A DNA stretch of 64,000 bases from Patescibacteria group bacterium (GTDB taxonomy: Bacteria; Patescibacteriota; Patescibacteriia; UM-FILTER-42-10), in NCBI GenBank assembly GCA_041666485.1, contig JBAYGW010000003.1, positions 16,415 to 80,414 on the forward strand, in the 5' to 3' direction. The notes beneath the pieces are model-generated. The model was not told the DNA's origin, did not search any database, and saw nothing but the letters and a program-made list of their open reading frames with translations. Made by a program: the position numbers and the translations under genes. Within the stretch, counting starts at the first letter, position 1; every line of letters starts with the position of its first letter. Shown in pieces: positions 1,427 to 57,027 of this stretch.

Positions 1427-1503
1427 AAATATGCTTTTATCAATGTAATCATATCACTTTTTTTGAAATGGATAAATATTTGTGGATAAAAAAAGAGCTC
1501 ATT

Positions 1504-1800
1504 TTAGACGCTCTTACTTGCGGTACTTATTTGGTGAGTACCGGTGTAAACACCATGCACGATCAATCCTACCCCGACCAAGATACCGACGACAACGCAG
1601 ATCCTCATGAGCAGTGGCATAGCGCGCCACTCGCCTCTCCAGTACGCAGCACATGCTGCTTCAAACGTCAGGACAGGCTGTTCTGACTCTGTCTTTGTGA
1701 GCGGTTCCGTCATGCGGTTCCCGTTCCCTTCTGTTGGACAGGCTAGTGTTTCGGGGCGAAGAAAATGAGCTTCAAAGAAGTATATCACCTCATTCCCCAT
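1504..1800 (-). CDS. hypothetical small membrane protein in a G+C-rich patch (alternative start at 1713)
   Basis: 98-aa ORF with a C-terminal hydrophobic helix (ICVVVGILVGVGLIV). The DNA is visibly G+C-richer than its flanks. No clear SD, and a weak hairpin+T-run overlaps the stop. Confidence 0.35.
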   Translation of the reverse strand: MGNEVIYFFEAHFLRPETLACPTEGNGNRMTEPLTKTESEQPVLTFEAACAAYWRGEWRAMPLLMRICVVVGILVGVGLIVHGVYTGTHQISTASKSV

Positions 1801-1818
1801 TTGTCAATACTAGGAATT

Positions 1819-2103
1819 TCAGCTGTAAATTATCACACCGATGACAACCATAATATTGATGATAAATGACACTATATTCGTAAAAATAATCGGCTTCTTT
1901 TTATGTAACTTCCCATAAATAACCCAAAGGATTGAGTTAAACGCGTAGGTAATCCAGGCAATTAGTGAAACACCGTCCGCGTTCTTATTCAGCCAAATCT
2001 TTATTACCTGCGACGAAGTCAATATTGGAATTGCGATGCCCATAATATACATAACCCGATCAAGTAACTGAACTCTGTCTCGCGCTTTTTTATCCATATC
2101 CAA
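1819..2103 (-). CDS. SemiSWEET/PQ-loop family small sugar transporter-like protein
   Basis: 94-aa ORF with three TM helices; size and topology fit bacterial SemiSWEET. Confidence 0.55.
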   Translation of the reverse strand: MDMDKKARDRVQLLDRVMYIMGIAIPILTSSQVIKIWLNKNADGVSLIAWITYAFNSILWVIYGKLHKKKPIIFTNIVSFIINIMVVIGVIIYS

Positions 2104-2197
2104 ATAGTCTCAATTCTAGCGGTTAATGTTATATTTCTTGAATATTCTTACTACATAAGTCATACTGTAAACACAGTATATCATTATATCTGCAATT

Positions 2198-3163
2198 ATG
2201 GTTAGTAAAAAAGACGAAGTAAATGACAGCAAATTCAGAGTGGCATTTTTCGGCACGCCGGATTTTGCCGTGCCGGCTTTACAGGCACTGCTCTCCATGC
2301 CGGAAATTTACGTGCTCGCCGCTGTTACCCAGCCCGATAAGCCGGCCGGAAGAAAACAGGAGCTGACGGCCCCGCCGATAAAAAAATTGGCGGAACAATA
2401 TAATCTGCCGGTCTGCCAGCCGGAACGGATAAAATCGGTAAAATTTGAACAGTGCTTACGAAATGTCAATCTAGATCTCGCGATCGTTGTGGCTTACGGC
2501 AAAATCATTCCGGAAAAAGTTCTGGACATACCAAAATACGGCTGGTTGAATATTCACGGATCTTTGTTGCCGAAATACCGCGGTGCTTCGCCGATTCAGG
2601 CAGCAATCTTAAATGATGAAAAAGAGACAGGAATTACGCTGATGAAAATTGATGCCGGTTTGGACACGGGAGCCATAATTAATCAAAAAACCATTCCGAT
2701 CATGAGTGGTGACAATTTTGAGTCACTGCATGACAAGCTTGCTCTGCTCGGAGCAGATATTTTAAAAAGTTCACTACTTGACTACTTAAACGGAAAACTG
2801 AAGCCGGTACCGCAGGACGATTTGAAAGCGACTAAAACGCTGATTATAAAAAAAGAAGACGGAAAAATTGATTGGTCAAAAGATGCGTCCGTAATTGCCA
2901 GACACATTAGGGCATATAATCCGTGGCCGGGTTCTTTTTGCAAGTATTACAATAAGACCCTGAAAATACACTCTGCGGAAATAGCTGACGCAAAAGTTCA
3001 ACTGAGTCCTGGTAAAATTTCATATATTGATAATTCCCTTGTAATCGGCTGCGGAAAGGGTAATTTGAAAGTAACTGAACTTCAATTGGAAGGTAAAAGA
3101 TTGCAAACAGCCAATGAATTTATTAATGGTATTCCAGATTTTAGAAATGCTCAGCTTGCTTAA
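2198..3163 (+). CDS. fmt: methionyl-tRNA formyltransferase
   Basis: 321-aa ORF; FFGTPDFAVP N-terminus and HGSLLPKYRGASPIQ catalytic motif. Confidence 0.95.
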   Translation: MVSKKDEVNDSKFRVAFFGTPDFAVPALQALLSMPEIYVLAAVTQPDKPAGRKQELTAPPIKKLAEQYNLPVCQPERIKSVKFEQCLRNVNLDLAIVVAYGKIIPEKVLDIPKYGWLNIHGSLLPKYRGASPIQAAILNDEKETGITLMKIDAGLDTGAIINQKTIPIMSGDNFESLHDKLALLGADILKSSLLDYLNGKLKPVPQDDLKATKTLIIKKEDGKIDWSKDASVIARHIRAYNPWPGSFCKYYNKTLKIHSAEIADAKVQLSPGKISYIDNSLVIGCGKGNLKVTELQLEGKRLQTANEFINGIPDFRNAQLA

Positions 3164-3328
3164 CCAAGCACAAGCTAAATAAAAAAATTGGCTCCTGCCA
3201 AGAACCCCACGCCTCATCCATTATAAATGTGTAGAGCAATCTCTACAGCTACATTCATTAGAAATGCCGTCCTTGAATTAATTTCTTTTTTTTATTTCCC
3301 CTAATTCCTGACCCCTAACTCCTATACC

Positions 3329-5678: not shown

Positions 5679-5679
5679 A

Positions 5680-6021: not shown

Positions 6022-6130
6022 TGGATTACAGCAATTATACCCTACCCAAGCCATAAAATAAAGAACCGAATTAACCAAAAAGACCCCGCGATTGCGGGAT
6101 CCTTTTTCCTCCTTAGCAATTTCAAATTTA

Positions 6131-6412
6131 TTAGAGAATTGCGTCTTTTGCTGCTTTGGCGACTCTGAACTTCAGCACTGTTTTGGCTTTGATCTGAATC
6201 TGTTCGCCCGTGGCTGGGTTTCGGCCCATGCGAGCTTCACGGTGCTTTTTGATCATCTTTCCCAAACCCGGGAGAGTGATTTCACCGCTTGATTTACATT
6301 CTTTGTAAACCAATTCGTTTAGGTTTTCCATGAAGGAAACAACCTCTTTTTTTTGAAGACCGGTTTTTTCAACCAGCGCTCCAATGAATTGAGACTTGGT
6401 CATTGATGCCAT
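6131..6412 (-). CDS. hup: HU family DNA-binding protein
   Basis: 93-aa ORF; the [14 protein letters not shown] arm motif and length are typical of HU/IHF. Confidence 0.9.
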
Positions 6413-9956: not shown

Positions 9957-10307
9957 TTAATGAATATGTTGATCTAAATGATTATCCAGCATTTCAACCT
10001 GTTCTTTGTCACTGATCTCAAGCATATAGCAAACGCACTTGCCCATTTTATACTTAGTTACAATCCGGGAGCGCTCTAGCATACTTAGCTGGTGCGACAC
10101 TGCGCTGATACTGATACCGAGCACAGCAGCGATATCTGAAACACAGATCTCTTCATAATGTTTTAATAACAGCAATATTTTTATCCTGGTCGGATCAGAC
10201 AAAACATTGCATAGATCACTTTGGATTTTTATGTGTTTACCGTTTCTTTTCAGCCAATTCTGATTTTTTAATATTTGCTTTTGCGTTAACATACTACGTT
10301 TTATCAT
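9957..10307 (-). CDS. ArsR/SmtB family transcriptional regulator
   Basis: LSDPTRIKILLLL and CVSDIAAVLGISISAVSHQL wHTH motifs. Confidence 0.9.
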   Translation of the reverse strand: MIKRSMLTQKQILKNQNWLKRNGKHIKIQSDLCNVLSDPTRIKILLLLKHYEEICVSDIAAVLGISISAVSHQLSMLERSRIVTKYKMGKCVCYMLEISDKEQVEMLDNHLDQHIH

Positions 10308-10440
10308 TTGCTCAAGTGTCTTAATGATATAGCAATTTGTTACCGCCTGTCAAGTCGGGTCACAACTCCTCATAAAGCCAATCTTGACAATAACGTACTT
10401 TTGTATTACTTTCTTTGTATGTTGATCTTTGAAACAACGA

Positions 10441-10575
10441 TGTAGGTGGGAGGACCGCCGTACCAAAAAGCAAGCAGTAATGCTACCCGCTGGGTGACAT
10501 TGACTGACGGGATTCGTCTCGTCCGTGGGCAGATGTTGCCCTCTGGGATGCTAAAGTGCGCGTCCTCCCACCCCA
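10441..10575 (+). promoter_or_regulatory. structured G+C-rich leader RNA domain, class unknown
   Basis: An 11-bp perfect long-range helix (GGTGGGAGGAC 10445-10455 with GTCCTCCCACC 10562-10572) extends by 3 bp. It encloses an AGCA-GTAA-TGCT GNRA hairpin, a GACG-GATT-CGTC hairpin and a GGGCA-n5-TGCCC hairpin. Confidence 0.4.
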
Positions 10576-10760
10576 CTTTCTTCTACAAATTGCTTTGTGC
10601 GGACGCTTAAGTCCGTTTGTGATAGTCACCCCACAACCCGATCCTACAGGGAGGTACGCCAAATGTACTCGTGGAGTTACGCACGCCACGGGTTCGGTTG
10701 ACCTGCGATCTTCTCCGTCTGAGTAGTCAATGCCCACGACTCAAAATGAGGAGATCTCGC

Positions 10761-11126
10761 ATGTGCGACAAGACCCAATGGAACGCGGGGCACGTCCTCG
10801 TCGTCCAGACCGTGTTCCCGACCGACAGCGAATCCCCCGGCGGTTTCTCGCGCAGCGTCATGTTGTGCACCTGTGGGAGCTGCCTGAGCTCCAACAACCC
10901 GATGACGCCCGCAGGGCCCCTGCACAGCTACCTGAAACGGTGCTTTGAGCAGGACGCTGCTGATGCGGTGGCGGGGGGCCTTGAGCCGCCCGTCAACCTC
11001 CTGAGCATGCCGAAGCTTGACCCGCGCACCGGCGCCGAGAAGCCGACCAAGAAGCAGGCAGCCATGCTGATCAAGCAGATCGGTCCGGACGCCTTCGCTT
11101 CCGACATCGTCGCGGCCTACGCCTAG
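10761..11126 (+). CDS. hypothetical protein (121 aa) in a G+C-rich cassette
   Basis: ATG is preceded by GAGGAG at 7-nt spacing, codons are GC3-rich, and a strong terminator follows. No family recognised. Confidence 0.5.
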   Translation: MCDKTQWNAGHVLVVQTVFPTDSESPGGFSRSVMLCTCGSCLSSNNPMTPAGPLHSYLKRCFEQDAADAVAGGLEPPVNLLSMPKLDPRTGAEKPTKKQAAMLIKQIGPDAFASDIVAAYA

Positions 11127-11159
11127 CGTAGGAGAAGAAGTACATCGTTGAAGGACATC

Positions 11160-11190
11160 GGGCGAATCCACTGGATTCGCCCATTTTTTT
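11160..11190 (+). terminator. intrinsic terminator
   Basis: GGGCGAATCCA-C-TGGATTCGCCC perfect hairpin followed by ATTTTTTT. Confidence 0.85.
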
Positions 11191-11276
11191 ATTATGAATA
11201 TTGACAGAAGAAGTGGAATACAATACCATTGTTAACGCCCGCTGATTGTAAGACATCCTTCATGGAGGAGGTGGAC

Positions 11277-11573
11277 ATGTCCCAAAGTCGGCTGGTGATG
11301 TTCTTAATGCTCTTTCTCGGACTGACTCTCTCTCCCCTGTTTCTTGTCGTTGCGGCGGTTATGTTCCTTGCTCCCTCGGAGCCGAAGCTCATCCCCCGGG
11401 ATGATGAAGGGAGACGTTGCTGTCCCGTCTGCCACTCCAGACACTATCTCATCTTCCCGACTCGGCAGAAGAGCTACTTCGGCCATTCCTGGATTTCAGC
11501 ATTTTGCAGAAACCAAATGGAATACCGCTACCAGGACTGCACAATGAGCTGGAAAGAATCCGGGGACGGCTAA
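11277..11573 (+). CDS. hypothetical small Cys-rich membrane-anchored protein (98 aa) in a G+C-rich cassette
   Basis: GGAGGAGG SD 5 nt before the ATG, an N-terminal TM helix (LVMFLMLFLGLTLSPLFLVVAAVMFL), and a CCPVC plus further Cys residues. Confidence 0.5.
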   Translation: MSQSRLVMFLMLFLGLTLSPLFLVVAAVMFLAPSEPKLIPRDDEGRRCCPVCHSRHYLIFPTRQKSYFGHSWISAFCRNQMEYRYQDCTMSWKESGDG

Positions 11574-11576
11574 ACC

Positions 11577-11604
11577 GCGTTGATGTTCTATCAGCGCTTT
11601 TTTT
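11577..11604 (+). terminator. intrinsic terminator
   Basis: GCGTTGAT...ATCAGCGC hairpin (one G-T pair) followed by TTTTTTT. Confidence 0.6.
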
Positions 11605-11623
11605 ATATATTTATTTGACGTTA

Positions 11624-11959
11624 CTATCTGAAGATTTTAGACAGAAACCAGTTTACAATAGCCAGTACAATACCAAACAGCAATGCCCACCAAAAGCTTG
11701 CTATGGAAAATCCCGGAACAATTAACGCCATCAGCATAACCAATAATGCGTTAATCACCAGCGTAAACAAGCCAAGCGTCAGAATATTGATCGGCAGAGT
11801 AAAAATTACTAAAACAGGTTTGATAAATATATTAATCAGACCCAATACCAACGCCCCGACAAAAGCGACAAAAAAACCATCAACCGCTACGCCCGGTAGC
11901 AGATAGGCTGTGATCAGGATTGCGACCGTTGAAATTAGCCATTTAATAAGGATTTTCAT
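11624..11959 (-). CDS. phage holin family 4 / YvlD-like membrane protein
   Basis: 111-aa, 4-TM ORF; ITAYLLPGV and PINILTLGLFTLVINAL resemble the Phage_holin_4_2 family. Confidence 0.75.
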   Translation of the reverse strand: MKILIKWLISTVAILITAYLLPGVAVDGFFVAFVGALVLGLINIFIKPVLVIFTLPINILTLGLFTLVINALLVMLMALIVPGFSIASFWWALLFGIVLAIVNWFLSKIFR

Positions 11960-14001: not shown

Positions 14002-14418
14002 ATGAAAATTGTAATTTGCGGAAGTATGTCGTCAGCAGTTAAGATGTTAAACGCTGAGAAAGAATTACTTCAAAAAGGCCATAAAGTTGTATTACCAAAA
14101 CATACAAAAGAATATGCAGAAATAGAATCGGAGGCGGACACATCACATGAATCAATCAAGGACAAAATTGAACAAGATCTAATACGAGACTATTTTGAAG
14201 AGATAAAAAACGCTGATGCAGTTTTGATTATTAATGTTGATAAATACGGTATTCAAAATTATATCGGTGGAAATGCTTTTCTGGAAATGGGTTTTGCATA
14301 TGTTCTCAGTAAACCAATTTATATACTCAATCAAATTCCGGAAATATTTTATAAAGATGAGATTTTGGCAATGCAGCCGATTACACTTAACGGAAATTTA
14401 TCTAAAATACATTTATAG
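14002..14418 (+). CDS. nucleoside 2-deoxyribosyltransferase-like protein
   Basis: MKIVICGSM N-terminus and a GGNAFLEMGFAY acidic motif, typical of the NDT/DUF4406-like Rossmannoid fold. Confidence 0.55.
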   Translation: MKIVICGSMSSAVKMLNAEKELLQKGHKVVLPKHTKEYAEIESEADTSHESIKDKIEQDLIRDYFEEIKNADAVLIINVDKYGIQNYIGGNAFLEMGFAYVLSKPIYILNQIPEIFYKDEILAMQPITLNGNLSKIHL

Positions 14419-14465
14419 TTAGCAAATTTTTACCATTTTCTTCTATTGTTATATAATAAGAAAAC

Positions 14466-14650
14466 AATAAAAATCAAGCATCGCACCAGCCTTGGCGAGG
14501 CGGGCAACACCGGATATCACCACTACGGTCTAGAACCCTTGGGGGCCTTTTTCAAGGAATTTCAGAGAGTTTTTCAAGAGGTCACCCCGTCATACGACGG
14601 GGCAGGAAATGAGACAAAAGAGACAGTGCAGAGGGGTGTCTTATTCTTGA
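14466..14650 (+). ncRNA. candidate small RNA or remnant in a G+C-enriched non-coding patch
   Basis: TGTTATATAAT extended -10-like box at about 14449-14459. The frame has no ATG. Hairpins include CCCCGTC-ATAC-GACGGGG and CCTTG...CAAGG. Confidence 0.25.
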
Positions 14651-14855
14651 CTCATTTAAATAACAGTAGCGTAATATTTACACGTTTAATTATCTCAAAA
14701 GGCACGAATTGATATTCGTGCCCATATGCTATCTATAAGAATTAGACAATTATAACAACTTAATTTGTAAAACAGATACAAGAGACACAATGTCTATTAT
14801 AATTTTTCAACTAAATCATTAACTTCTTCGACATTAATTATGATTAGCTAAAAGA

Positions 14856-15392
14856 TTATTGCGCAGCAGGATAATTGACACGACCCAGATCGCGCGTTAA
14901 TGCCCACCATAAAGACGTCTTTGTAACCGATGGTAGCGATCCGGAAGTATCTTCAGGTATTGATAATACATCGTCCATTAATTGTCCTTGAATATACTGA
15001 CCCGGCACAAAAAGAGAGACTGCGGTCGCTGCGCTGGGATTCGGGTGATTCAACACTGTTAACTGTCCGTTAGTACGCATAACGTCTCTAATCATTAAAA
15101 CTCTTCCAATATATCCATCTGACTCGGTAAATGGATTACTATTTGGCGCGACTGCTGTATATGCATAAAAGCGAAATGAATTTGCAAAAGTCGGGCTAAG
15201 ATAAAAATAAATGCCCAAGAGTACAAATGTAAAACCAACCAAAGTAAAAAAGGAACCGACAATTAAGGAAATCCTTTTCCAAAGACTCCCTTTTGATTTG
15301 ATAATAAATATAATCAAAACAACCACTGCAATTAATATCAGCGGCATAATGACCGCCAAGCTTATGTAGTTTAAACCAAGGTTTGCTTGCAT
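14856..15392 (-). CDS. hypothetical membrane protein
   Basis: 178-aa ORF with two N-terminal TM helices and an extracytoplasmic C-terminal domain. Confidence 0.55.
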   Translation of the reverse strand: MQANLGLNYISLAVIMPLILIAVVVLIIFIIKSKGSLWKRISLIVGSFFTLVGFTFVLLGIYFYLSPTFANSFRFYAYTAVAPNSNPFTESDGYIGRVLMIRDVMRTNGQLTVLNHPNPSAATAVSLFVPGQYIQGQLMDDVLSIPEDTSGSLPSVTKTSLWWALTRDLGRVNYPAAQ

Positions 15393-15452
15393 ATGTTTTA
15401 TAATAAAGATTTATATGTATATATTATATCATTTTATATAAAAGTATAATAG

Positions 15453-15491
15453 TATAAAAATGGCTCTGACAACGAATTCGTCGCCAGAGCC
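15453..15491 (-). terminator. intrinsic terminator of the G+C-rich secreted-protein cassette
   Basis: GGCTCTG...CAGAGCC hairpin (inner ACGAATTCGT palindrome) followed by ATTTTTAT on the minus strand. Confidence 0.6.
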
Positions 15492-15514
15492 TTGAATGAA
15501 ACAGGAGCGCTATA

Positions 15515-15895
15515 CTACGGACAGCTGCCGATCCACGGGGTCGGACTGCCCGTGTAGTCGAATGCCAGGCAACCGAGATGCGTCGTACCACCACCGAGGG
15601 TCTTCGACGGCCAGGTGTTGGACTGAATGTTGATGTCATTCACCCATGCCTTGCCGATGTAACCGGAACCAGACGGAAGTCCCGAGACAGAGATCAGTCG
15701 TTGCCCGAGCGGGAGCGTGACCATCGTGTTCTGCCAACGGACTGTGCTCCCCTGGATGATCTGCACCGTGTACGTGAATGATGATGGACCTCTCACCGTC
15801 ACCTGAGCAGTGCCGGCATGGGCGACGCTAACAGATCCGATGGACACCATCACGACGAGGACAAACAGCAGGATGACACTCTTGAAGATCTTCAT
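15515..15895 (-). CDS. hypothetical small secreted protein (126 aa) in a G+C-rich cassette
   Basis: AGGTGG SD and a signal peptide ending VAHA-GT. The mature part is beta-rich with two C-terminal Cys and GC3-rich codons. Confidence 0.6.
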   Translation of the reverse strand: MKIFKSVILLFVLVVMVSIGSVSVAHAGTAQVTVRGPSSFTYTVQIIQGSTVRWQNTMVTLPLGQRLISVSGLPSGSGYIGKAWVNDINIQSNTWPSKTLGGGTTHLGCLAFDYTGSPTPWIGSCP

Positions 15896-16459
15896 GATCT
15901 TCCACCTTTCATGCGAGTTTGCCTATGCTGTAATGACCAATGAAGCTACGATGAACTCTTACCTCCTTTCTCAAATAGGAAACGAACGATGAATCATTCC
16001 TGGTGTAACCAAGAACGTTATTAAAAGTATGTATGAGTATCAAAATTATTGCAAGAATAAACTTGCGTTATGAAATCTCGGAATCCAAACTACTTTCTCT
16101 TTTTAGAGTGATGATTGAGTGTCCACCAACATCGAAATCAAGATTTTGATGTATTAATGCGTACAGTTTTTTTATAATATGACCATCTTAGACAAACCCA
16201 GACAATATGATTACCGATAATATCAGACAAAATAAATGCCCTTGGAATGAAGCAGAAATGTAAACACTCACAAATGTGCTGTAAAAAATATTTCAATTTG
16301 TGATTATTTCTGTGGGATTGAATATCTAGATAATGTTTTGTGTTGTTATCCCGATAAAAATACTTTGCTAGATAATAAACAAAACAAATAATTTTATTCC
16401 TTAACGCTCGCTCTGGACGCCGGAATATCCTATTCTGTTAGCTGATTGCCGGATAAATT

Positions 16460-22718: not shown

Positions 22719-22841
22719 TATATCCCATTTTACAGAATAAATCCCGTTAAAAGCTTATGTGTGGTATTAAACTCCGCGTTCTCTATACCTTTGTGTATTC
22801 AGCCCGCAGCGAGATGCGAAGTATCCTGCTTCTAATGGAAT

Positions 22842-22878
22842 AAAAAACCTGCCCAACACGTGAGTTGTGTTTAGACAG
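22842..22878 (-). terminator. intrinsic terminator of the purH cassette
   Basis: Imperfect CCTGTCTAAACAC...GTGTTGGGCAGG hairpin followed by TTTTTTA on the minus strand. Confidence 0.55.
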
Positions 22879-22907
22879 GGTCCTTTTGAAAAATGTGCAA
22901 ACGCCCT

Positions 22908-24497: not shown

Positions 24498-24563
24498 TTC
24501 TGCTCCTTTCGTGGCAAACCGTGAAGCTTTCACCGCAAACAACCGTTTGGGAAACGGTTTTTT

Positions 24564-24592
24564 AACTTATCACTCCGACTGACGCAAGTCAA
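24564..24592 (-). promoter_or_regulatory. sigma70-like promoter of the purH cassette
   Basis: TTGACT, a 17-nt spacer, then TAAGTT on the minus strand, about 70 nt upstream of the purH ATG. Confidence 0.45.
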
Positions 24593-24641
24593 ATCAAAAA
24601 CGGGTGACTTTCACCCGCATTTAATTATGAATGAATATGTC

Positions 24642-36415: not shown

Positions 36416-36420
36416 GATTA

Positions 36421-36475
36421 GTAATTCGTAATTAGCAATTGGTAATTAGTAATTAGCAACGTGTAATTCGCTGTA
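36421..36475. repeat. AATTAC/GTAATT heptamer array (candidate operator) upstream of the AMP phosphorylase gene
   Basis: On the minus strand: TAATTACTAATTACCAATTGCTAATTACGAATTAC, 5 nt before the ATG. Five AATTAC units in about 55 nt. Confidence 0.6.
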
Positions 36476-36516
36476 TAATGCCGTATGTACAGGTCTGATA
36501 TTAAGATGTAAAAAAA

Positions 36517-37761: not shown

Positions 37762-37762
37762 A

Positions 37763-38719
37763 TTATAGATTCTTGAAAATCCATGGATAATGCTTTTCAA
37801 CTAAATAAGCAACATCACGTGGCTTAATAATACCAAATTCACAAATTATTCCTTTGATGAATTTAGATGGAATGCGGTCAAAAGCGAAATTGATTATTTT
37901 TAATCCTTTCGGACCGTTCGGCCAGATTTCTTTGCGATCCCGCAATTCAATGCCAACATATTTGCTGATAAATGTTTCCGGATCGGTTTTTAAAAGTGAA
38001 GCGGCGACATAAACCGGAATTTTTTCGTGGTTAGCAACCTGGGCGATTCCGTAGCTACCGACTTTGTTGATCACTGAGCCGCCGGATGTAACCGAGTCTG
38101 CACCCAAAAAAGCAATATCCACCATCACTTCCCGGCCACTGGTTCTGCTGATCAGAAAAGCGGCAGCTGAATCAGCCACCATTGTGACGTCAATCTTTCG
38201 CTTTAATAGATTCTTAGCTGTTATTCGCCCCTGGAAAAGCGGGCGGGTTTCTGTACAAAAAACATGCGGCATCTTTGAATGTTTATTAGCCTCAGTAATA
38301 ATATGCTCCACAGTTGAAGAATGGCAGTGCGTGAATACTTTCATATCTTGCTTAATCAGTTTTGCGCCGGCTACGGCAATTTTTTGATCATGATATTTCA
38401 GCAAAACTAAAAAAAGATGGCAAGCTTTTTTTAGCAACTTCGCCAACTCAGGCACGGATAAACCTTCTTTATTATTCTCTAAATAATGTAAAACGAATTG
38501 GACTGAATTACGGGACAGCGGTTCGGTCGGCCTTGCTTCCGCCAAGGCTTTGCCACTTTTACGAATAGCAGAAAGAAACTGGCTTTTATTTTTTTTTAGC
38601 AATTGATTACTTTCCAACTGCAACGCGTCCAAAATTACTTTGGTTATCTGCGTTGCACCCTGTATTTCTAAAGATGCTATTTTTGTTACTGTTTTTTGTA
38701 CTGCGCTATTCATAAACAC
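37763..38719 (-). CDS. ribose-1,5-bisphosphate isomerase (eIF-2B alpha/beta/delta family, E2b2-type)
   Basis: 318-aa eIF-2B-family ORF (TRPLFQGR, GADSV motifs) directly upstream of RuBisCO. Confidence 0.8.
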   Translation of the reverse strand: MFMNSAVQKTVTKIASLEIQGATQITKVILDALQLESNQLLKKNKSQFLSAIRKSGKALAEARPTEPLSRNSVQFVLHYLENNKEGLSVPELAKLLKKACHLFLVLLKYHDQKIAVAGAKLIKQDMKVFTHCHSSTVEHIITEANKHSKMPHVFCTETRPLFQGRITAKNLLKRKIDVTMVADSAAAFLISRTSGREVMVDIAFLGADSVTSGGSVINKVGSYGIAQVANHEKIPVYVAASLLKTDPETFISKYVGIELRDRKEIWPNGPKGLKIINFAFDRIPSKFIKGIICEFGIIKPRDVAYLVEKHYPWIFKNL

Positions 38720-38734
38720 AGTATACCATTTATA

Positions 38735-40558
38735 TCATTCCCATTCAATCGTCCCTGGCGGCTTGTTGGTGAAATCAAAAACAATCAAATCTATTTGTTT
38801 TATTCTTTTTAAGCGTCCGACAACCTGGTCAATAAAAGATCGGGACAACGGGAAATACTTGACCGTCATTGCTTCCTCCGATTGCACGGGGCGCAAAATT
38901 ACTGTGTAGCCGCCCGCAATGGAATATGGGGCCAGGATTACGGGAAATTGCCAGATTTTAGAATCCAGTCGGGCTTTTTTCATTTCAGACTGTACTATGT
39001 CGTCAATATTCTGCAGTAGAGCCACGTTTTTTTTCGTCAGCAGAAGTTTAATATTTTTTCCTCCGCTAATATCTTTTTTCCTGCTAAAAATCACCCAGCA
39101 CACCCGATTTACATTTTGAATCTGATTTGCCACGAGCGGACCGAGCTTTTGCATTTGAATAGTATTCATTTCTCCGGAGAAAACCGCGGGATGGGCGTAA
39201 GTCCGTTCATCGCCCTGAACGCCCACACTTCTGACCGGTAGTACCCAGCCTTTAATATCTGATTTGTTCTCATAATTGAACTGCGAGATTATTATATCCA
39301 AATCGGCATTTTCTTTCTTTACATTTACATGCACCTTATTTCCCCGGGAACAAATTATACGGATTGCCAACCCCGGACCGGGAAATGGATGACGATTGAT
39401 AATTTCTCCAGGCAAGCCGATCTGCTTGCCGAGCTGCCGTACTTCGTCTTTGTACAAGTCTTTCAAAGGCTCAATGACCAACCCGCGTTTTATTAATTCC
39501 AAAACTTCTTTTACCCGATTATGGTGTGTTTTTATTTTATCGGCGTGCTTCGTCCCGCCCGATTCAATTGTATCCGGATAAATAGTCCCCTGCGCCAGAA
39601 TCCATTCCTTTGGATTCAGTTTGAATTTCTTCATCGCAATTCTTTGAACATCCAGATACGTCCTGCCGATAATCTCGCGTTTGCGTTCCGGACTGATAAT
39701 ACCTTTTAACCTCTTATAGAATAGTACGGAAGCATCCATTACTTCCAGATTGGTAAACCCTAGTTTATTGAAACGTTTTTTTATTTCCTCTGATTCATTT
39801 TTTCTCATGAACCCCAGATCAATATGCAGACCAAACACCTTTTCTTTGCCCAAGATCCGATTCAGTAACCCGAAACATACGGCAGAATCAACTCCGCCGG
39901 AAACCAGCAAAAATACCTTGCGACTTCCTACTTTCCTAACTATCTCTTTTTCAATATCAGTTAAGTAATGTTTAATATCCCATTCCTTTTTAGCGCCGCA
40001 GATACTGAAAACAAAGTTATTAATTAATTCCATTCCACGTTCTGTATGTGATACTTCGGGGTGAAACTGGACTCCGTATATTTTCATTATGCTGTTTCCC
40101 ATCGCTGCTACCGGGCAATCAGCAGTCTTTGCCATGACTTTAAATCCCTTCGGCACATTTAATACAAGATCACCATGACTCATCCAAACCTGTTCGTTTG
40201 CACCAAATTTCCTGAACAGCTTGCCGGGTTCAATTACTGACAGGTTGGCAAAACCATATTCTCTCACATCACCCCTGACTACTTTTCCGCCCATTAGATA
40301 GGTGATCAGTTGGTGACCATAGCAAACACCTAGGATTGGTACGCCGCTTTTCAGTATTCTCCGGTCAAATTTTATTTTCCCGTCATAAACGCTGTTTGGT
40401 CCGCCGGACAGGATTATTCCCCAGGACGACCTTAATTCTTCAAGTGGCGTTTCGGGATTGTAAATATTAGCTAAAACACCAAGTTGCCGGATTCTGCGTG
40501 CAATCAGGTGGGTATATTGTGAACCAAAATCCAGAATTGTTATGTGTTTTTGTTTCAT
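38735..40558 (-). CDS. guaA: GMP synthase (glutamine-hydrolysing), long-form C-terminal domain
   Basis: GATase GVCYGHQL, PP-loop SGGVDS, SVGVQGDERTY and C-terminal GTIEWE. At 607 aa it is longer than typical bacterial GuaA. Confidence 0.93.
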   Translation of the reverse strand: MKQKHITILDFGSQYTHLIARRIRQLGVLANIYNPETPLEELRSSWGIILSGGPNSVYDGKIKFDRRILKSGVPILGVCYGHQLITYLMGGKVVRGDVREYGFANLSVIEPGKLFRKFGANEQVWMSHGDLVLNVPKGFKVMAKTADCPVAAMGNSIMKIYGVQFHPEVSHTERGMELINNFVFSICGAKKEWDIKHYLTDIEKEIVRKVGSRKVFLLVSGGVDSAVCFGLLNRILGKEKVFGLHIDLGFMRKNESEEIKKRFNKLGFTNLEVMDASVLFYKRLKGIISPERKREIIGRTYLDVQRIAMKKFKLNPKEWILAQGTIYPDTIESGGTKHADKIKTHHNRVKEVLELIKRGLVIEPLKDLYKDEVRQLGKQIGLPGEIINRHPFPGPGLAIRIICSRGNKVHVNVKKENADLDIIISQFNYENKSDIKGWVLPVRSVGVQGDERTYAHPAVFSGEMNTIQMQKLGPLVANQIQNVNRVCWVIFSRKKDISGGKNIKLLLTKKNVALLQNIDDIVQSEMKKARLDSKIWQFPVILAPYSIAGGYTVILRPVQSEEAMTVKYFPLSRSFIDQVVGRLKRIKQIDLIVFDFTNKPPGTIEWE

Positions 40559-40653
40559 ACTTGTCTTTATTGTAAAATATACTTACAATTAAAACAACAT
40601 TTTAACCCTAATCCCTTGTCCCTACTACCTAACTTCGCATATTACCAGGTAGA

Positions 40654-40691
40654 GATTACGAATTACCAAATTGCCAATTACTAATTACTAG
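40654..40691. repeat. AATTAC heptamer array (candidate operator) in the guaA/guaB divergent region
   Basis: On the plus strand: GATTACGAATTACCAAATTGCCAATTACTAATTAC, 20 nt before the guaB ATG. It shares both 12-13-mers with the 36421-36475 array. Confidence 0.6.
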
Positions 40692-40711
40692 TTCCTAAAC
40701 CCTAAAAAAAT

Positions 40712-42187
40712 ATGTTTACCCAGTTTGAAGAAACATTAACATTTGATGATGTATTGTTAGTTCCGCAAAAGTCATCAATTCTTCCGAATGAAACCGAGAT
40801 TAAAACCAGGCTGACACGCAGGATAAATTTAAATATTCCATTAATCTCATCCCCGATGGACACTGTAACCGAACACCGGCTGGCGATCGCCCTGGCACTG
40901 CACGGCGGAATCGGGATAATTCATAAAAATATGCCTGCCGACAAACAGGCGCAGGAAGTAAGTTTTGTAAAAAGATTTGAAAACGGCTTTATTGAAAATC
41001 CTGCCACACTGCAGCCGGAAGATCCGATTGATGACGCGGCGGAAATTAGAGACAAAAAAGGATACAAAAAAATTCCGATTGTTGATAAAAACAACAAGCT
41101 GGTGGGAATGATTACCGAGCAGGATTATTTCGTGCCCGACGATTTGAAACTGCCGATAAAATTTAAAATGAAACGTTTGAATGAAATTGTGGTCGCTAAG
41201 CACGGCATCACCCTCCAACAAGCAAATAAAATTATTAGGGAGAAAAAGCTCACCGCATTGCCGATCGTTAATAAGCAGGGAAAACTGGTTAGTATGGTTA
41301 CCAGAAAAGATTTGGAAAAAAACGAGCAGCACCCCAATGCCTGCAAGGATGATAAAAAACAACTGCGGGTCGGTGCCGCTATTTCCGTCGGCCCGGAAGC
41401 TCTGGAACGCGCCAAATATTTGGTTGCCGCCGGAGTAGATGTATTGGTCGTTGATACCGCTCACGGCCATACTAAGGGCGTATTGGATACGGTAAGAGCG
41501 CTGAAAAAAAATAAATTGTTTTCTAATATTGATATCATCGCCGGGAATGTCGCAACAGAAGAAGGAACCAGAGATCTGATCAGGGCTGGTGCGGACGCTG
41601 TAAAGGTAGGGGTCGGGCCGGGATCAATCTGTACCACCAGAGTAATTGCGGGGATCGGTGTACCACAAATCAGCGCGATTCTGGCGGCGGTAAAAGGCCG
41701 GGGTAAATCCAATATTCCCATTATTGCTGACGGCGGTATCCGATACTCAGGCGATATAGTAAAAGCACTTGGTGCTAAAGCGGATTCCGTAATGATCGGC
41801 AGTCTTTTTGCCGGTTGTGAAGAAACACCAGGTGAAATAGAGTATGAAGGTGGCAAAATGTATAAATCCTACCGCGGGATGGGTTCAAAAGAAGCCATGA
41901 TCCACGGATCCAAAGACCGTTACGGACAGGGAGAGCAAAAAGACAGTGAAAAACTGGTGCCGGAAGGTGTATCAGCCAGGGTTATTTATAAAGGGCTGGT
42001 TTCAAGACACATATATCAGTTGATCGGCGGGATTAGATCCGGTATGGGTTATATCGGCTCTAAAACAATTTCGGAGTTGCACAGGAAAGCAAGATTTATT
42101 AAAATCAGCTCTGCGGGACTGCGAGAAAGTCATCCACATGATGTAACAATTACAAAACAGCCGCCAAATTATCATTCGGAAAAATAA
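40712..42187 (+). CDS. guaB: IMP dehydrogenase
   Basis: CBS pair insert, [11 protein letters not shown] catalytic Cys loop and GGIRYSGD. Confidence 0.95.
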
Positions 42188-44754: not shown

Positions 44755-44783
44755 TTGACACCCGTCAAATTTGAGCCTAAACT
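44755..44783 (+). promoter_or_regulatory. sigma70-like promoter of the BCCP-like cassette
   Basis: TTGACA, a 17-nt spacer, then TAAACT. Confidence 0.5.
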
Positions 44784-44844
44784 CTATATGGCCTGAAAAG
44801 CCATTTGTTCATTGTCACCGGCTCAACACCAGAAAGGAGCAGAC

Positions 44845-45267
44845 ATGGACTTGAAAAAAGTCCGGCAAATAGTCAGCCTGCTCCAAGAGCATCCAACTAT
44901 TGCCGAGCTGGAAGTAAGGAACACGATGGGATTTGAAAAAATCCTGATCCGGAGGTCTCCTCCGATCATCCCCGAGAGTCAGACACAAGCAACAGTTGTA
45001 CTGGCACGACCGACCTTTTTCATCACCGCTCCGGATGTCGGATGGTACCTGGCCGCTGCCGATCTGGAGAAAAATCCGCCGCTTACCAAGGGCAGTTTTG
45101 TTTCCCAGGGCGAAATCGTGGGTTACATTGAAAACCACGGAATTCGGAATGAAGTCGTTGCGGAATTCGCCGGGACAGTCATGCATGTACATGCTGAAAC
45201 CGGTAAACCGGTGGAGTACGACCAGAAGCTGTACACAATCTTACTTTCCGAACCTTCCAGATGCTAA
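44845..45267 (+). CDS. biotin carboxyl carrier protein-like protein lacking the biotinyl-lysine
   Basis: AccB-like N-terminus (MDLKKVRQIVSLLQEH..IAELEV) and a C-terminal lipoyl/biotinyl fold (GEIVGYIE-NHGI-RNEVVAEFAGTV..GKPVEYDQKLY). NHGI replaces the AMKM motif. AAAGGAGC SD; G+C-enriched. Confidence 0.6.
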   Translation: MDLKKVRQIVSLLQEHPTIAELEVRNTMGFEKILIRRSPPIIPESQTQATVVLARPTFFITAPDVGWYLAAADLEKNPPLTKGSFVSQGEIVGYIENHGIRNEVVAEFAGTVMHVHAETGKPVEYDQKLYTILLSEPSRC

Positions 45268-45283
45268 TTACCTGCTCATTTCG

Positions 45284-45310
45284 TCAAGCGCAATGCTTGA
45301 TGTTTTTTTT
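45284..45310 (+). terminator. intrinsic terminator
   Basis: TCAAGC-GCAAT-GCTTGA hairpin followed by TGTTTTTTTT. Confidence 0.7.
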
Positions 45311-47614: not shown

Positions 47615-48250
47615 CTATTTTTTCTTTTTTGCCTTCGGTTTAGCTTTTACCGCCTTTATTACCTTCTTCTTAACTTCTGCTTTTACAGAAACCTTCTTCT
47701 TTATTTCGGGCTTAGAAACAGGTTTTACTTTTTCTTGTAATACTTCTGGCTCTGCTGCCGATAACTGCCGCAATATTTTATCTAATTTTTCATTAATTGT
47801 TTTTAACTGGCCGTCAAATCGCCCGCTATTGGCATCGCTTGGTTTTCGGTCAGCACTTCTCGGATCCTTCCCAAAACAGCTGGAACACAATACGGGCTTT
47901 TCTCCGGTAGGACGAAAAGGAACTTCACAGCTCTGCCCGCACTTGGAACAGGTAGCACTGAACATTTTTTTCTCATAAAAATTCGGCTTGCCGAAATCCC
48001 TGCCAAAAGAACGACCGGAACTTGATTTATCCTTTGCTTTGAAGCAGTTACTGCAATAAACCGGCTTGTTTCCCGTCGGTTTAAACGGAACTTCACAGCT
48101 TTGCCCGCATTCCGAACAGACAGCTTTATGCATTACATGATGGTCCGAGTCACCTCCCCGGTTATAACCGCCGCTCATAGATTCTCTGCGGTCAAAACTA
48201 GGACCGTTTTTTCGGTCAAATGATTTTCCGTTTCTGTTAAAGTTTTTCAT
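47615..48250 (-). CDS. CxxC-x17-CxxC domain protein (two zinc-ribbon repeats, Lys-rich tail)
   Basis: CSECGQSCEVPFKPTGNKPVYCSNC and CSKCGQSCEVPFRPTGEKPVLCSSC repeats, and a KKK-rich C-terminus. Confidence 0.7.
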   Translation of the reverse strand: MKNFNRNGKSFDRKNGPSFDRRESMSGGYNRGGDSDHHVMHKAVCSECGQSCEVPFKPTGNKPVYCSNCFKAKDKSSSGRSFGRDFGKPNFYEKKMFSATCSKCGQSCEVPFRPTGEKPVLCSSCFGKDPRSADRKPSDANSGRFDGQLKTINEKLDKILRQLSAAEPEVLQEKVKPVSKPEIKKKVSVKAEVKKKVIKAVKAKPKAKKKK

Positions 48251-50655: not shown

Positions 50656-50658
50656 ATT

Positions 50659-52066: not shown

Positions 52067-52119
52067 GGATCTATTGTATTAAAAAAAGCGGATGTCGTCC
52101 ACCTTATTGTAATTTCTTT

Positions 52120-53089: not shown

Positions 53090-53092
53090 AGT

Positions 53093-53842: not shown

Positions 53843-53863
53843 ATTATTTTCATTATATCATTA

Positions 53864-54838: not shown

Positions 54839-54882
54839 ATTAATTTAAAATTTTGTAAAGATATTATATCAGAAAATAATGA

Positions 54883-55653
54883 TTAGCATAATTTTACAGT
54901 TTCATCATGAAGTCTGGTGCCGTTAGTGGCAATAAATATGCTGTTCATGTCATTTTTTTCAATTCTGCCGGAAAAATCCGTAATGCGTGCCCCTGCCTCT
55001 CGGGCAATTAATTTGCCCGCGATATGGTCATATATTTCGCTGTAGTTATTAATTAATATTTCTACTTTCCCTGAAGCAAGCATGCAGAAATCCAGTGAAG
55101 GAGACCAATTGCGTAAAATTCTTTTTACTTTTTTATTTTCAACTCTATCAATGATTAACTTATGCGGCTTGCGGTTCACTGTGTAATGAGTTATGTAGAC
55201 AACGGTTGATTTCTCCAATTCGGATATTTTATTTACTTCAATCTTTTTTTTATTACAGAAAGCGCCATTACCTTTTTCCGCATAATATGTTTTTTCTTGG
55301 ATCGGGTCGTACACTACTGACGCAATTATTTCATCATTTCTTAATAATGCGATGGAAGCAGAAAAATTAGGTATTCCTAAAACAAAATTATTTGAGCCGT
55401 CTAACGGATCAATGATCAAGGTATATTCAGAATTTTTCTTTATCTCTCCCGTTTCTTCGGAGAAGATATTAAAACCGGGTAATTCTTTGGTGACAATATT
55501 TAAAATAGCCGCCTCTGATTCAATATCAGCTTTCGTATAAACATCAGCCGGAAATGTCTTCTGAACAACTTGCAGATCGTGGCCGAAATATTTCCTTAAT
55601 ACTTCCCCGCCGGCCTCTGCCGCTTTGATAATTACCTTTGTTTCTCTTTTCAT
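54883..55653 (-). CDS. inositol monophosphatase family protein
   Basis: EE..., IDPLDGSNNF and WSPSLD-type motifs. Confidence 0.85.
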   Translation of the reverse strand: MKRETKVIIKAAEAGGEVLRKYFGHDLQVVQKTFPADVYTKADIESEAAILNIVTKELPGFNIFSEETGEIKKNSEYTLIIDPLDGSNNFVLGIPNFSASIALLRNDEIIASVVYDPIQEKTYYAEKGNGAFCNKKKIEVNKISELEKSTVVYITHYTVNRKPHKLIIDRVENKKVKRILRNWSPSLDFCMLASGKVEILINNYSEIYDHIAGKLIAREAGARITDFSGRIEKNDMNSIFIATNGTRLHDETVKLC

Positions 55654-55810
55654 ACCGTCTTATTGTACCAAATATCAATGTTTCTGGCGACTTGTCATTA
55701 CAGTCACGTAGCAACCCTGACTTGCCAGAGTAAATGAAATATGGTAAAAACAAAACTGTGCCCATCTTCAGGGCGCAAATGACCAAAACCCGTTTTTGGG
55801 AGGTATTGGT

Positions 55811-56923
55811 ATGGACCAACGATTTGTCGATCTGGCGAGAGTCATGGTCGGCCATTCCACAAGGGTCTCAAAGGACGATATCGTCATCGTCAAGAGCACG
55901 GAGGTAGTGCCGCCCGACATGATCTTCGCGGTGATCCAGACCGTGCGCGAAGCGGGGGGCTCCGTGATCCCCTGGCGCTACGATCCGCGCATTGACTTCG
56001 AGGCATTCAGGGGTGGCACCGCTCACCAGCTGCGTGCCTGGGGCGCCGGCCAGTTTACCCAACTGGCTGCCGCCAACTGCTTCATTGAGTTCCGGCCGTT
56101 CAGTAACCAGCTCGACGGCAACGACGTGCCGGCAGCGGACATGCAGCGCCACGGCGAGGTGTTCGTTCCGCTGACGGTTGAACAGCGCGTGGAACGCACC
56201 CGCTGGGTGCTGACCCGCTGGCCGACGCCGGCCAACGCCCAGTTGGCCGGGATGTCCACGACGCAGTTCGAAGAGTTCTTCTTCAAGGCATGCCTCGCCG
56301 ACTACGGCGCCATGGCCAAGGCCGTGAAGCCGCTCGTCGCCCTGATGGAGCGGACCGACCAGGTCCAGATCCAAGGGCCGGGCGACACCGATCTCACTTT
56401 CAGCATCAAGGGAATTCCGATCATCGCCTGTACCGGATCGCACAACATCCCCGACGGCGAAGTGTTCACGGCGCCGGTTCGCGATTCCATGAACGGCGTG
56501 ATCGCCTACAACACCCCCACGGTCAACTCCCGCGGCCAGCGGTTCACCAATCTCCGCTTCGTGGTCAAGGCGGGCAAGATCGTGGAGGCGACCTGCGAGA
56601 CGGGTGACCAGACGGCGCTGGACGCCTTCCTGGACACCGACGAGGGTGCCCGCTACTTCGGCGAATTCGCCCTCGGCATCAACAACTTCGTCACGGGTGT
56701 GATCGGCGAAACGCTGTTCGACGAGAAGGTCGGTGGAAGCCTCCACTTGACGCCCGGCCGGTGCTATGAGCAAGCGCCGAACGGGAACCAGTCGGCCAAC
56801 CACTGGGACATCGTCTGCGATCAGCGCGGGGCTTCCGGTGGTGGGGAGATCTACTTCGACGGCAAGCTGGTCCGCAGCAAAGGGCTTTTCATCCCGAAGA
56901 GCCTCCACGCGCTCAATCCCTGA
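55811..56923 (+). CDS. M29 family aminopeptidase (AmpS/PepS-like)
   Basis: 370-aa ORF; NIPDGEVFTAP and HWDIV motifs of thermophilic metalloprotease M29. GGGAGG SD. Strongly G+C-rich. Confidence 0.82.
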   Translation: MDQRFVDLARVMVGHSTRVSKDDIVIVKSTEVVPPDMIFAVIQTVREAGGSVIPWRYDPRIDFEAFRGGTAHQLRAWGAGQFTQLAAANCFIEFRPFSNQLDGNDVPAADMQRHGEVFVPLTVEQRVERTRWVLTRWPTPANAQLAGMSTTQFEEFFFKACLADYGAMAKAVKPLVALMERTDQVQIQGPGDTDLTFSIKGIPIIACTGSHNIPDGEVFTAPVRDSMNGVIAYNTPTVNSRGQRFTNLRFVVKAGKIVEATCETGDQTALDAFLDTDEGARYFGEFALGINNFVTGVIGETLFDEKVGGSLHLTPGRCYEQAPNGNQSANHWDIVCDQRGASGGGEIYFDGKLVRSKGLFIPKSLHALNP

Positions 56924-56996
56924 CCGCACAACCGGCGCATTGTCAACTAAGCCGTCTAGCACGGCTATTCGCTCTTGAAACGGACCCGCGAACTGT

Positions 56997-57027
56997 GACC
57001 TTAACAGTTCAAAGGTCCATTTTTTTT
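56997..57027 (+). terminator. intrinsic terminator of the aminopeptidase cassette
   Basis: GACCTT-AACAGTTC-AAGGTC hairpin followed by CATTTTTTTT. Confidence 0.6.

Follow-up and report, generated by a model that had tools for sequence, protein, structure and literature searches.

The window considered here, i.e. the whole stretch of 64,000 nucleotides of contig JBAYGW010000003.1 from a Patescibacteria group bacterium, has an overall G+C content of 40.5% and contains, dispersed among its A+T-rich native genes, seven G+C-rich single-gene units, which are the subject of this analysis. These units add up to about 5.7 kb, i.e. 9% of the window, and account for about 1 gene in 10. Over 21.6 kb the window is identical to the ENA metagenome contig ERZ27249449 k141_142440; the coordinates recorded for the locus L001 differ from the offset of the window, the sequence being the same. 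As judged from the native genes, the nearest genomes are metagenome-assembled genomes (MAGs) named 'Patescibacteria group bacterium' from a groundwater site, a name under which NCBI also has one protein of the window, and the native genes themselves (def, fmt, those of HU, MalQ, Fpg and NUDIX hydrolases, the AMP phosphorylase/R15P isomerase/RuBisCO cluster, guaA and guaB) are typical of the Candidate Phyla Radiation (CPR). The loci of relatives that were compared with the window carry L-numbers (L002, L005, L007, L087 etc.).

In a profile of 300-nt bins, G+C contents of 0.51-0.66 are reached at 1501-1800, 10501-11400, 15601-15900, 22801-24600, 45001-45300 and 55801-57000. The peaks fall at the positions listed in an initial annotation of this DNA, which had described self-contained G+C-rich single-gene units in an A+T-rich backbone poor in Shine-Dalgarno (SD) sequences, and composition, SD and promoter data agree with that description. 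The G+C content at third codon positions (GC3) has a median of 0.394 in native open reading frames (ORFs; median absolute deviation 0.041), while in the seven unit ORFs it is, with corrected frames and in map order, 0.57, 0.88, 0.66, 0.73, 0.77, 0.55 and 0.85, i.e. 2.6 to 8.0 robust standard deviations above the native median; two non-coding segments are G+C-rich as well. Both the GC3-rich codons (0.55-0.88) and the long antisense ORFs noticed initially are real, an example of the latter being the 364-aa frame at 55868-56962 on the minus strand, opposite the M29 gene. Codon usage in the units (AAG, CTG, CGC, GGC, ATC) is of the high-GC-genome type, Lys, Gln and Glu being shifted to their G-ending codons, and amino-acid usage is of the same type, with less K, I and N and more A, R, G and P; the pooled counts are slightly affected by the 121-aa ORF having been counted in the wrong frame, those of purH plus M29 are not. 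High-expression codon bias was considered as a cause and rejected: HU (GC3 0.48), rubrerythrin (0.36) and RuBisCO (0.43) are compositionally native, which argues against an effect of expression level, and the Lys, Gln and Glu codons and the amino-acid usage are shifted too. Structured RNA genes were also rejected as the cause of the islands, no Rfam family fitting any of them: at the gathering threshold the only Rfam match in the window is the tRNA-Gln, and relaxed scans of 10350-11650 and 14380-16000 returned nothing credible.

Three of the seven products have a clear identity, namely PurH, an M29 aminopeptidase and a BCCP-like (biotin/lipoyl-domain) protein. The remaining four, i.e. two membrane proteins of 69 and 98 aa, the latter with CxxC motifs, a Cys-rich one of 121 aa and a secreted one of 126 aa, belong to no family; neither PHROGs nor NCBIfam assigned a function to the small unit ORFs, and PHROGs had no match for any of the window's own units. 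The purH unit (22841-24592, minus strand) has the promoter TTGACT-17-TAAGTT at 24592-24564, a 5' untranslated region (5'UTR; G+C 0.52) with hairpins, the SD AAAGGAGC and a terminator at 22881-22841. Its ORF (22908-24497, minus strand; 529 aa, GC3 0.77) matches PurH in Pfam and the PurH equivalog of NCBIfam with a score of 592, and promoter and leader are conserved among siblings. In the M29 aminopeptidase unit (55722-57030, plus strand) a weak promoter, TTGCCA-17-TAAAAA, and a 5'UTR hairpin precede the SD GGGAGG and an ORF of 370 aa (55811-56923, plus strand; GC3 0.85, Pfam M29), which is followed by a 3' element of about 90 nt (56945-57030, plus strand) made of GCCGTCTAGCACGGC, a GACCTT/AAGGTC stem and T8. 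The BCCP-like unit (44755-45310, plus strand) comprises the promoter TTGACA-17-TAAACT, a 5'UTR hairpin, the SD AAAGGAGC, a 140-aa ORF with a biotin/lipoyl domain (44845-45267, plus strand; GC3 0.55), in which no MKM biotinylation motif was seen on inspection of the sequence by eye, and a terminator at 45282-45310. Its promoter, 5'UTR and first ~90 nt of coding sequence (44755-44935) are near-identical in three species in which about half of the native four-fold sites differ, and are recognizable even in a distant relative. Within this segment GGAGCAG, at the SD, has its complement, CTGCTCC, some 40 nt further downstream, which suggests an SD-sequestering hairpin.

The small units are built in a similar manner. 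Unit 1 (1480-1807, minus strand), to which the initial annotation had attributed no clear promoter, does have one, TTGACA-17-TATACT at 1807-1779 (11/12 in the promoter scan), upstream of a 5'UTR of ~59 nt (G+C 0.54) and of the real ORF at 1504-1713 (minus strand), which encodes the 69-aa membrane protein (GC3 0.57) and is followed by a terminator consisting of the hairpin AGAGC...GCTCT and T7; in the sibling L007 the unit is 91% identical, with an in-frame 3-nt indel, and promoter and terminator are conserved. Unit 2 (10384-11190, plus strand) has the promoter TTGACA-17-TACTTT at 10384-12, the SD GAGGAG and a terminator at 11160-11190. The G+C-rich segment at 10.4-11.2 kb was recognized from the start; its coding frame, here corrected to an orphan Cys-rich ORF of 121 aa with GC3 0.88, lies at 10761-11126 (plus strand) behind a structured leader of ~340 nt (~10419-10760, plus strand; G+C 0.53). 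This leader is conserved in L007, where it carries an extra 31-nt hairpin in an apical loop; it folds with z = -3.5, is closed by the 11-bp helix GGUGGGAGGAC/GUCCUCCCACC, has no Rfam match and is a candidate riboregulator (10419-10760). In an exhaustive HMMER search the 121-aa ORF found 4 matches among 1.84 billion representatives. Unit 3 (11201-11604, plus strand) consists of the promoter TTGACA-17-TACCAT, the SD GGAGGAGG, an ORF of 98 aa (11277-11573, plus strand; GC3 0.66) with an N-terminal transmembrane segment and CxxC motifs, and a terminator at 11577-11604; its protein is 67-69% identical to the sibling copy in the same slot. An ArsR-family regulator gene (9957-10307) stands divergently beside the unit 2 leader, and both downstream ORFs are Cys-rich, features that may point to a metal response. 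Unit 5 (15455-16014, minus strand) has an ill-defined promoter, a leader of ~85-120 nt, the SD AGGTGG, an ORF of 126 aa with a signal peptide (15515-15895, minus strand; GC3 0.73), the homologues of which are all from Patescibacteria, and a 13-bp terminator at 15491-15462. A further G+C-rich segment (14460-14655, G+C 0.51) contains no ORF and lies past the terminator of a 178-aa gene. It folds better on the minus strand (z = -3.3 vs -1.7 on the plus strand), ends there with a 3' hairpin and a U-rich tail, has no match to any Rfam family and is conserved from 14517 on within an 88%-identical block of the sibling L102; it is a candidate small RNA on the minus strand, of which strand and ends are predicted ones.

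What sets the units apart from their neighbours is, besides composition, their expression anatomy. A sigma-70-like promoter, a G+C-rich 5' leader, one ORF and a hairpin with T-run recur in each unit, and a strong SD in six of the seven. In these six the duplex energy with the anti-SD is between -8.6 and -15.2 kcal/mol, which upholds the six strong SDs of the initial annotation, against a median of -1.2 kcal/mol in native genes, 9% of which reach -8 or lower; for the 121-aa ORF the calculation took 10763 as start, which leaves the SD the same as with the true ATG at 10761. The same contrast is found in six related loci (8/12 G+C-rich genes vs 9/119 others; Fisher p = 5e-6). In 17 of 67 native genes, instead, a TATAAT-like box stops 6-9 nt short of the ATG, vs about one per position elsewhere, which is the spacing expected for leaderless mRNAs; as far as motif spacing can tell, the genome appears to be mostly leaderless, with native genes that lack an SD. 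The leaders of the units span ~40-340 nt downstream of -35/17/-10 matches, and six of the seven coding units have such a match of their own. Of the five signals of this kind initially reported, all are present as strings; the one of M29 is weak, and compared with shuffled sequence there is no general excess of promoter-like matches, which owe their support to position and to conservation in siblings. Hairpin and T-run terminators, as first proposed, follow all seven units (four found by scan and three, with longer loops, by eye). By transcript part, G+C content is 0.43-0.56 in the 5'UTRs (0.50-0.56 in six of seven), 0.24-0.45 in the promoters and 0.21-0.49 in the outer flanks. The rise in G+C begins at the predicted transcription start and not at the ATG, which makes it a property of the transcript and not of the codons alone. 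The 12-mer GAAAGGAGCAGA precedes the start codons of both purH and the BCCP-like gene and is probably a favoured ribosome-binding site and not an insertion signature.

The same islands are found in relatives. In the window, L002, L005, L101 and L097 the purH gene has DoxX or an esterase on one side and PHP on the other, and in L098 PHP is close by; the GC3 of purH in these six genomes is 0.61-0.81. Native GC3 is mostly ~0.25-0.50 in five of the six, the backbone of L098 being mixed and reaching 0.58. Relatives of purH that are 79-82% identical occupy the DoxX-PHP slot on long contigs of other assemblies, with a G+C content of 0.58-0.59 in 40-41% backbones, and even the distant copies of L097 (51% identity) and of a Kerfeldbacteria MAG (49%) are G+C-rich and at or beside the slot. 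These purH sequences, nine in all, form one clade with 100% neighbour-joining bootstrap among the top 60 matches. L087, L088 and L089 all have the BCCP-like gene in the corresponding slot, with a G+C content still at 0.45 in L089, the genome of which has 36%. The M29 ortholog of the nearest sibling, L088, is in the same slot, 88% identical and with GC3 0.83, and units 1-3 have 81-91% nucleotide identity in the nearest sibling. M29 is also G+C-elevated in non-syntenic Patescibacteria (L099, GC3 0.60 vs a backbone of ~0.20; also L100 and L103). The units are, therefore, long kept and inherited at fixed slots, and a recent import is not supported.

That the islands might be a product of chimeric assembly, contamination or engineering, as the initial annotation had contemplated, would account for the odd composition and for nothing else. 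G+C-rich purH is found at the same slot in at least six independent assemblies (ENA, JGI, Logan, NCBI), orthologous islands occupy identical slots in data of different groups, assemblers and samples, and the junctions at promoter, leader and terminator are conserved. The recurrence of the same islands at the same slots in independent assemblies excludes an artefact, the chance of which we consider practically nil.

Beyond the sibling group the best matches are 49-65% identical, and all those traced or named are from Patescibacteria or Kerfeldbacteria; no match above 65% identity was found outside that group among 5.8 billion clusters, which include metagenomes from the same sample. The donor search proposed at the outset, carried out with PurH, M29, the 126-aa protein and the 121-aa ORF, yielded only Patescibacteria relatives or nothing, and scans of IMG/VR with M29 and PurH no close viral relatives. 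Some further genes of relatives are of related character: on the Kerfeldbacteria contig L103 (7226-9140) a truncated purH-like gene (200 aa, MGS and AICARFT) stands directly upstream of M29, these two being locally the most G+C-rich genes; L102 contains a G+C-rich outlier ORF of 103 aa (11630-11941, GC3 0.76), and L100 an OPT oligopeptide transporter gene with a strong SD (731-2557, GC3 0.74). The G+C-rich class is probably larger than what is seen in the window.

Among four siblings the distances at four-fold sites are 0.39-0.70 for purH and 0.89-1.26, i.e. near saturation, for native genes, with a ratio of 0.43-0.58 in 6/6 pairs; the constancy of the ratio fits co-divergence of purH with the genome at about half the native rate, and the other units have the same excess of synonymous identity. 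A maximum-likelihood (ML) fit on a star tree gives purH an equilibrium G+C content at four-fold sites (GC4) of 0.83, native-like values of 0.45-0.50 being worse by 8-9.5 in twice the log-likelihood difference. Between the window and L097 the correlation of native sites as to G or C (S) versus A or T (W) has fallen to 0.06, and the GC4 of purH is 0.79 and 0.63, respectively. By our arithmetic, even an ancestor with only G or C at these sites would, at the native turnover, have come down to at most ~0.60 in the window and 0.49 in L097; the observed values are above these bounds, and neutral amelioration at the native rate is, thus, insufficient to explain them. The S/W correlation of purH taken by itself was dropped as an argument, as a nearly all-GC ancestor gives a low correlation at any age. 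Atypical composition is said to be a mark of foreign DNA that fades by amelioration, a concept attributed to Lawrence and Ochman (1997). Contrary to its prediction, the units have not converged on the host in spite of saturated native synonymous divergence, and of the features by which a recent island would be recognized they have the atypical composition and neither the absence from relatives nor a closer foreign donor.

Recent and repeated transfer of single genes, still un-ameliorated, from donors of high G+C content that do not belong to the lineage had been the first of the initial proposals. It would explain codon and amino-acid usage of a high-GC type, SD-led units inside a non-SD host, a content that differs among siblings at two slots and the excess of S-to-W changes in purH. 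It does not explain why siblings and distant relatives have the same slots with the same composition, why purH is monophyletic with distances proportional to the native ones, nor why no match above 65% was found outside the sibling group among 5.8 billion clusters. The units co-diverge with the backbone, and those used in the searches have no closer relative outside Patescibacteria; vertical conservation with unchanged composition, which the initial annotation itself had set against its proposal, is what purH, M29, the BCCP-like gene and units 1-3, with their small ORFs at 1.5 and 10.4-11.6 kb, display. For these six recent transfer is largely refuted, and in general it is improbable.

The reading that best accommodates these data, to which we assign a probability of roughly 0.55, is that the units form a second, long-established class of genes in a Patescibacteria family near Kerfeldbacteria, ancient, vertically kept and retaining their G+C-richness. 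Each is an autonomous monocistron with a promoter of the sigma-70 type at one end and an intrinsic terminator at the other, and between them a G+C-rich, often structured leader, a strong SD and a single ORF; around it are A+T-rich native genes without SD that appear to be expressed from leaderless mRNAs. The products are salvage enzymes (PurH, M29), the BCCP-like protein and small proteins that are Cys-rich, secreted or located in the membrane. The units are inherited vertically at fixed intergenic slots, with occasional replacement or relocation, and their acquisition would predate the divergence of these species and, in the case of purH, the split from Kerfeldbacteria-like relatives. An ancient foreign origin, i.e. 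the units being ancient xenologs, is likely because they use codons and amino acids in the manner of genes that evolved under high G+C content. Since then, the G+C content of the whole transcript would have been held against the A+T-biased drift of the genome by a force that we take to be either selection on the RNA or GC-biased gene conversion. In other work, transfers into Patescibacteria were found to come mostly from other Patescibacteria and not to be recent (PMC12455944).

Several points weigh against this reading of the units as an ancient, composition-retaining class. By parsimony, changes at the four-fold sites of purH are 34 S>W vs 7 W>S, where a stationary simulation gives 28:17 (p ~0.005), which suggests some net loss of G+C from purH and disagrees with the ML fit; both methods assume a near-star tree and equal site rates and use 189 sites. 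The 34:7 ratio had first been read as amelioration, an interpretation that was abandoned when the simulation ascribed much of the excess to parsimony bias and the ML fit went in the opposite direction. The PurH proteins of the window and L097 are 51% identical vs ~72% for native proteins, more divergence than plain vertical inheritance would produce if relative rates were constant, and replacement in place by a distant allele is possible. The case for a foreign origin is made from composition, with no donor identified, and that for leaderless native mRNAs from the spacing of a motif; the anti-SD used for the duplex energies was an assumed one; and the reading in relatives covered ~20 kb around a few genes, which limits what can be said of the genome-wide size of the class and of the membership of ribosomal-protein genes.

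A different view of the same data dispenses with a foreign origin. The genome could intrinsically have two classes of genes, leadered SD transcripts being kept G+C-rich by selection on the RNA (for stability, for structure-based regulation or for the avoidance of internal A+T-rich signals), while leaderless native genes drift towards A+T. With it agree the extension of G+C-richness over leaders, 3' elements and ORFs, the conservation of leaders far above native synonymous sites, the SD-sequestering complementarity in the BCCP-like unit, the high equilibrium GC4 of the ML fit, the linkage of SD and G+C content in relatives too and the GC3 of 0.88 in the orphan ORF of unit 2; moreover, by our arithmetic purH GC4 exceeds the backbone by much the same logit offset, ~1.1-1.4, in five lineages. 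Difficulties are that no known mechanism requires an entire ORF to be G+C-rich, that amino-acid composition is shifted as well, that the M29 homologue of L099 is G+C-rich without an SD, and that parsimony hints at decay. Two coding regimes kept apart by selection, an A+T-rich leaderless majority and ~10% of G+C-rich, structured and SD-dependent transcripts, are for us a tentative alternative, doubtful but deserving of attention. If it were true, the minority would be a separately controlled set, e.g. of stabler mRNAs or of mRNAs translated under other conditions, and G+C content would be a maintained, heritable property of transcripts across Patescibacteria and not the trace of the origin of the DNA.

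GC-biased gene conversion at recombination hot spots, sustained by frequent exchange by transformation among co-occurring relatives, could by itself raise G+C content locally. It would be in keeping with a shift at all three codon positions combined with fast protein change, with the lower synonymous rate, with cassette swaps at the same places, with siblings that come from one sample and with a mildly raised GC4 in the neighbouring DoxX gene. It is at odds with the sharpness of the boundaries at promoter and terminator, with promoters that are A+T-rich and conserved within what should be a hot spot and with the lack of a shared motif resembling an uptake sequence. The effect needed, from a GC3 of 0.39 to one of 0.85, is, to our knowledge, far above any reported in bacteria, and as an explanation of the units we find gene conversion unlikely.

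In the framework of an ancient class inherited at fixed slots, two slots do show turnover. Positions 54888-55820 of the window align (82%) with 16628-17565 of L087 through the M29 promoter, leader and SD, to ~10 nt past the ATG; the ORF that follows in L087 bears no similarity to M29 and encodes a PepT-like M20 tripeptidase. After this ORF comes the ~90-nt 3' element known from the M29 unit, which is present again in L087 after a second small G+C-rich unit. The latter contains an RNA polymerase alpha-CTD-like gene with its own promoter, TTGACA-17-TACGAT, and the SD GGAGGAGG. This slot, between the inositol-phosphatase and 2-hydroxyacid dehydrogenase genes, is thus occupied by M29 in the window and L088, by the PepT-like gene, the alphaCTD-like gene and one native gene in L087, and by four A+T-rich genes in L089. 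The second slot, beside CNNM, is taken up in the window by the 126-aa unit, in L002, L005 and L097 by a G+C-rich gene of 405-421 aa and in L007/L101 by two native genes. The 1.5-kb block that includes the 126-aa unit (14517-16062) is relocated to a different genomic context in the sibling L102. Replacement would most likely proceed by uptake of DNA, competence being assumed, followed by homologous recombination in the conserved flanks, i.e. promoter and leader on one side and terminator on the other.

No dedicated machinery for mobility is associated with the units. In agreement with the initial annotation, integrases, recombinases and transposases are absent from the Pfam-annotated genes of the window, the only nuclease-like gene being that of a GIY-YIG protein beside the tRNA-Gln, and no attC-like site is present at the unit boundaries. 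A k-mer comparison of the unit boundaries in search of a common insertion signature brought out terminator T-runs as the only k-mers common to 4-5 of 8 units, apart from which one 9-mer is shared by three units and a few 11-12-mers by two. In the window there is a single copy of the 15-nt hairpin that belongs to the M29 3' element, and in L087 this hairpin is confined to that slot. No phage genes are near the units, the neighbours being housekeeping and salvage genes. The cassette-capture mechanism that had been suggested finds, for lack of an integrase, of attC-like sites and of a shared boundary motif, no support. A broader form of this idea, a G+C-rich accessory pool on an unsampled Patescibacteria plasmid or phage that re-seeds chromosomes in a source-sink manner, integron-like capture included, could draw on the moron-like make-up of the units (own promoter and terminator, odd composition), on the same families being G+C-rich in unrelated Patescibacteria backbones, on the match of the PepT-like protein to a PHROG family and on the repetition of the 3' element after two ORFs in L087. 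IMG/VR, as said above, contains no close relatives, the genes and sites for integration are missing, the 3' element is confined to one slot and the units co-diverge with the host, which makes such a pool very improbable.

Comparison with known systems helps to place these features. The units share single odd-composition ORFs and a structured 3' element with integron cassettes, and two consecutive ORFs of L087 have the same ~90-nt element; unlike cassettes, they have no intI, attI or attC consensus, are dispersed from 1.5 to 57 kb (~55 kb) and not in tandem, and have their own promoters and no common Pc, the repeated 3' element being an intrinsic terminator confined to one slot. Phage 'morons', reportedly described by Hendrix and colleagues in lambdoid phages, are said to be single extra genes between genes that are adjacent in relatives. 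The units resemble them in this position and in having their own promoter and terminator, odd composition and conserved neighbours, and differ in being chromosomal and not part of a prophage and, for most of them, in staying at fixed slots over deep divergence and not being scattered. In gene displacement in situ, as recounted of the work of Omelchenko and co-workers (2003), a gene at a fixed position is reportedly replaced by a non-orthologous analogue. The M29 aminopeptidase has likewise given way to a PepT-like tripeptidase in a fixed expression context; what differs is that a stand-alone monocistron and not an operon gene is concerned and that both alternatives are compositionally atypical. 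The minimal mobile elements of Neisseria, as outlined in PMC3787668 (describing Saunders & Snyder 2002 and Snyder et al. 2007), are regions bounded by specific conserved genes, variable in gene content and composition among close relatives and without mobility genes, the exchange of which is thought to take place by transformation followed by homologous recombination within the flanking sequence. The M29/PepT and CNNM slots are similar in that their content differs between the same flanking genes and the units have neither mobility genes nor terminal repeats. They are dissimilar in that the boundaries at the M29 slot are within the unit (one just after the initiation codon, the other at the 3' element), most units are stable and transformation is assumed.

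If the units are indeed such an ancient class, atypical G+C content, which is routinely read as recent transfer, would here be a stable feature millions of generations old, and filters for horizontal transfer or contamination based on composition would misjudge CPR genes of this kind. SD-less, probably leaderless native genes and SD-led units would, side by side, be a natural system for the coexistence of two modes of translation initiation, and the units allow one to ask whether selection or biased conversion holds base composition transcript by transcript. The M29/PepT swap is an example of gene replacement within a fixed expression site without a mobility gene. Furthermore, the enzymes encoded by the units, for peptide and purine salvage, are relevant to the dependent lifestyle of these bacteria. 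At 34913-42187 the window contains a CPR-type nucleotide salvage cluster (AMP phosphorylase, a RuBisCO of form II/III-like type and an R15P isomerase-like protein of the IF-2B family) beside guaA and guaB, and the G+C-rich purH may feed inosine monophosphate into this salvage route.

A few other features of the window concern genes of native composition. The HU gene (6131-6412) is 100% identical to that of a sibling at the protein level and 95% identical at four-fold sites, where its neighbours are near 50%, a pattern due either to very strong synonymous constraint or to recent exchange. Tandem repeats are present in two native genes, with a period of 159 nt at 33243-33622 in the gene of a PA14/FG-GAP protein and of 168 nt at 47892-48124 in that of a double treble-clef zinc-finger protein. 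Finally, a perfect 36-nt direct repeat has its first copy (60159-60194) in tRNA-Gln(CTG) and its second (60565-60600) in the ORF of the GIY-YIG-domain protein (60222-60689, minus strand); the arrangement (60139-60689) resembles the trace that insertion of an element at the tRNA gene would leave.

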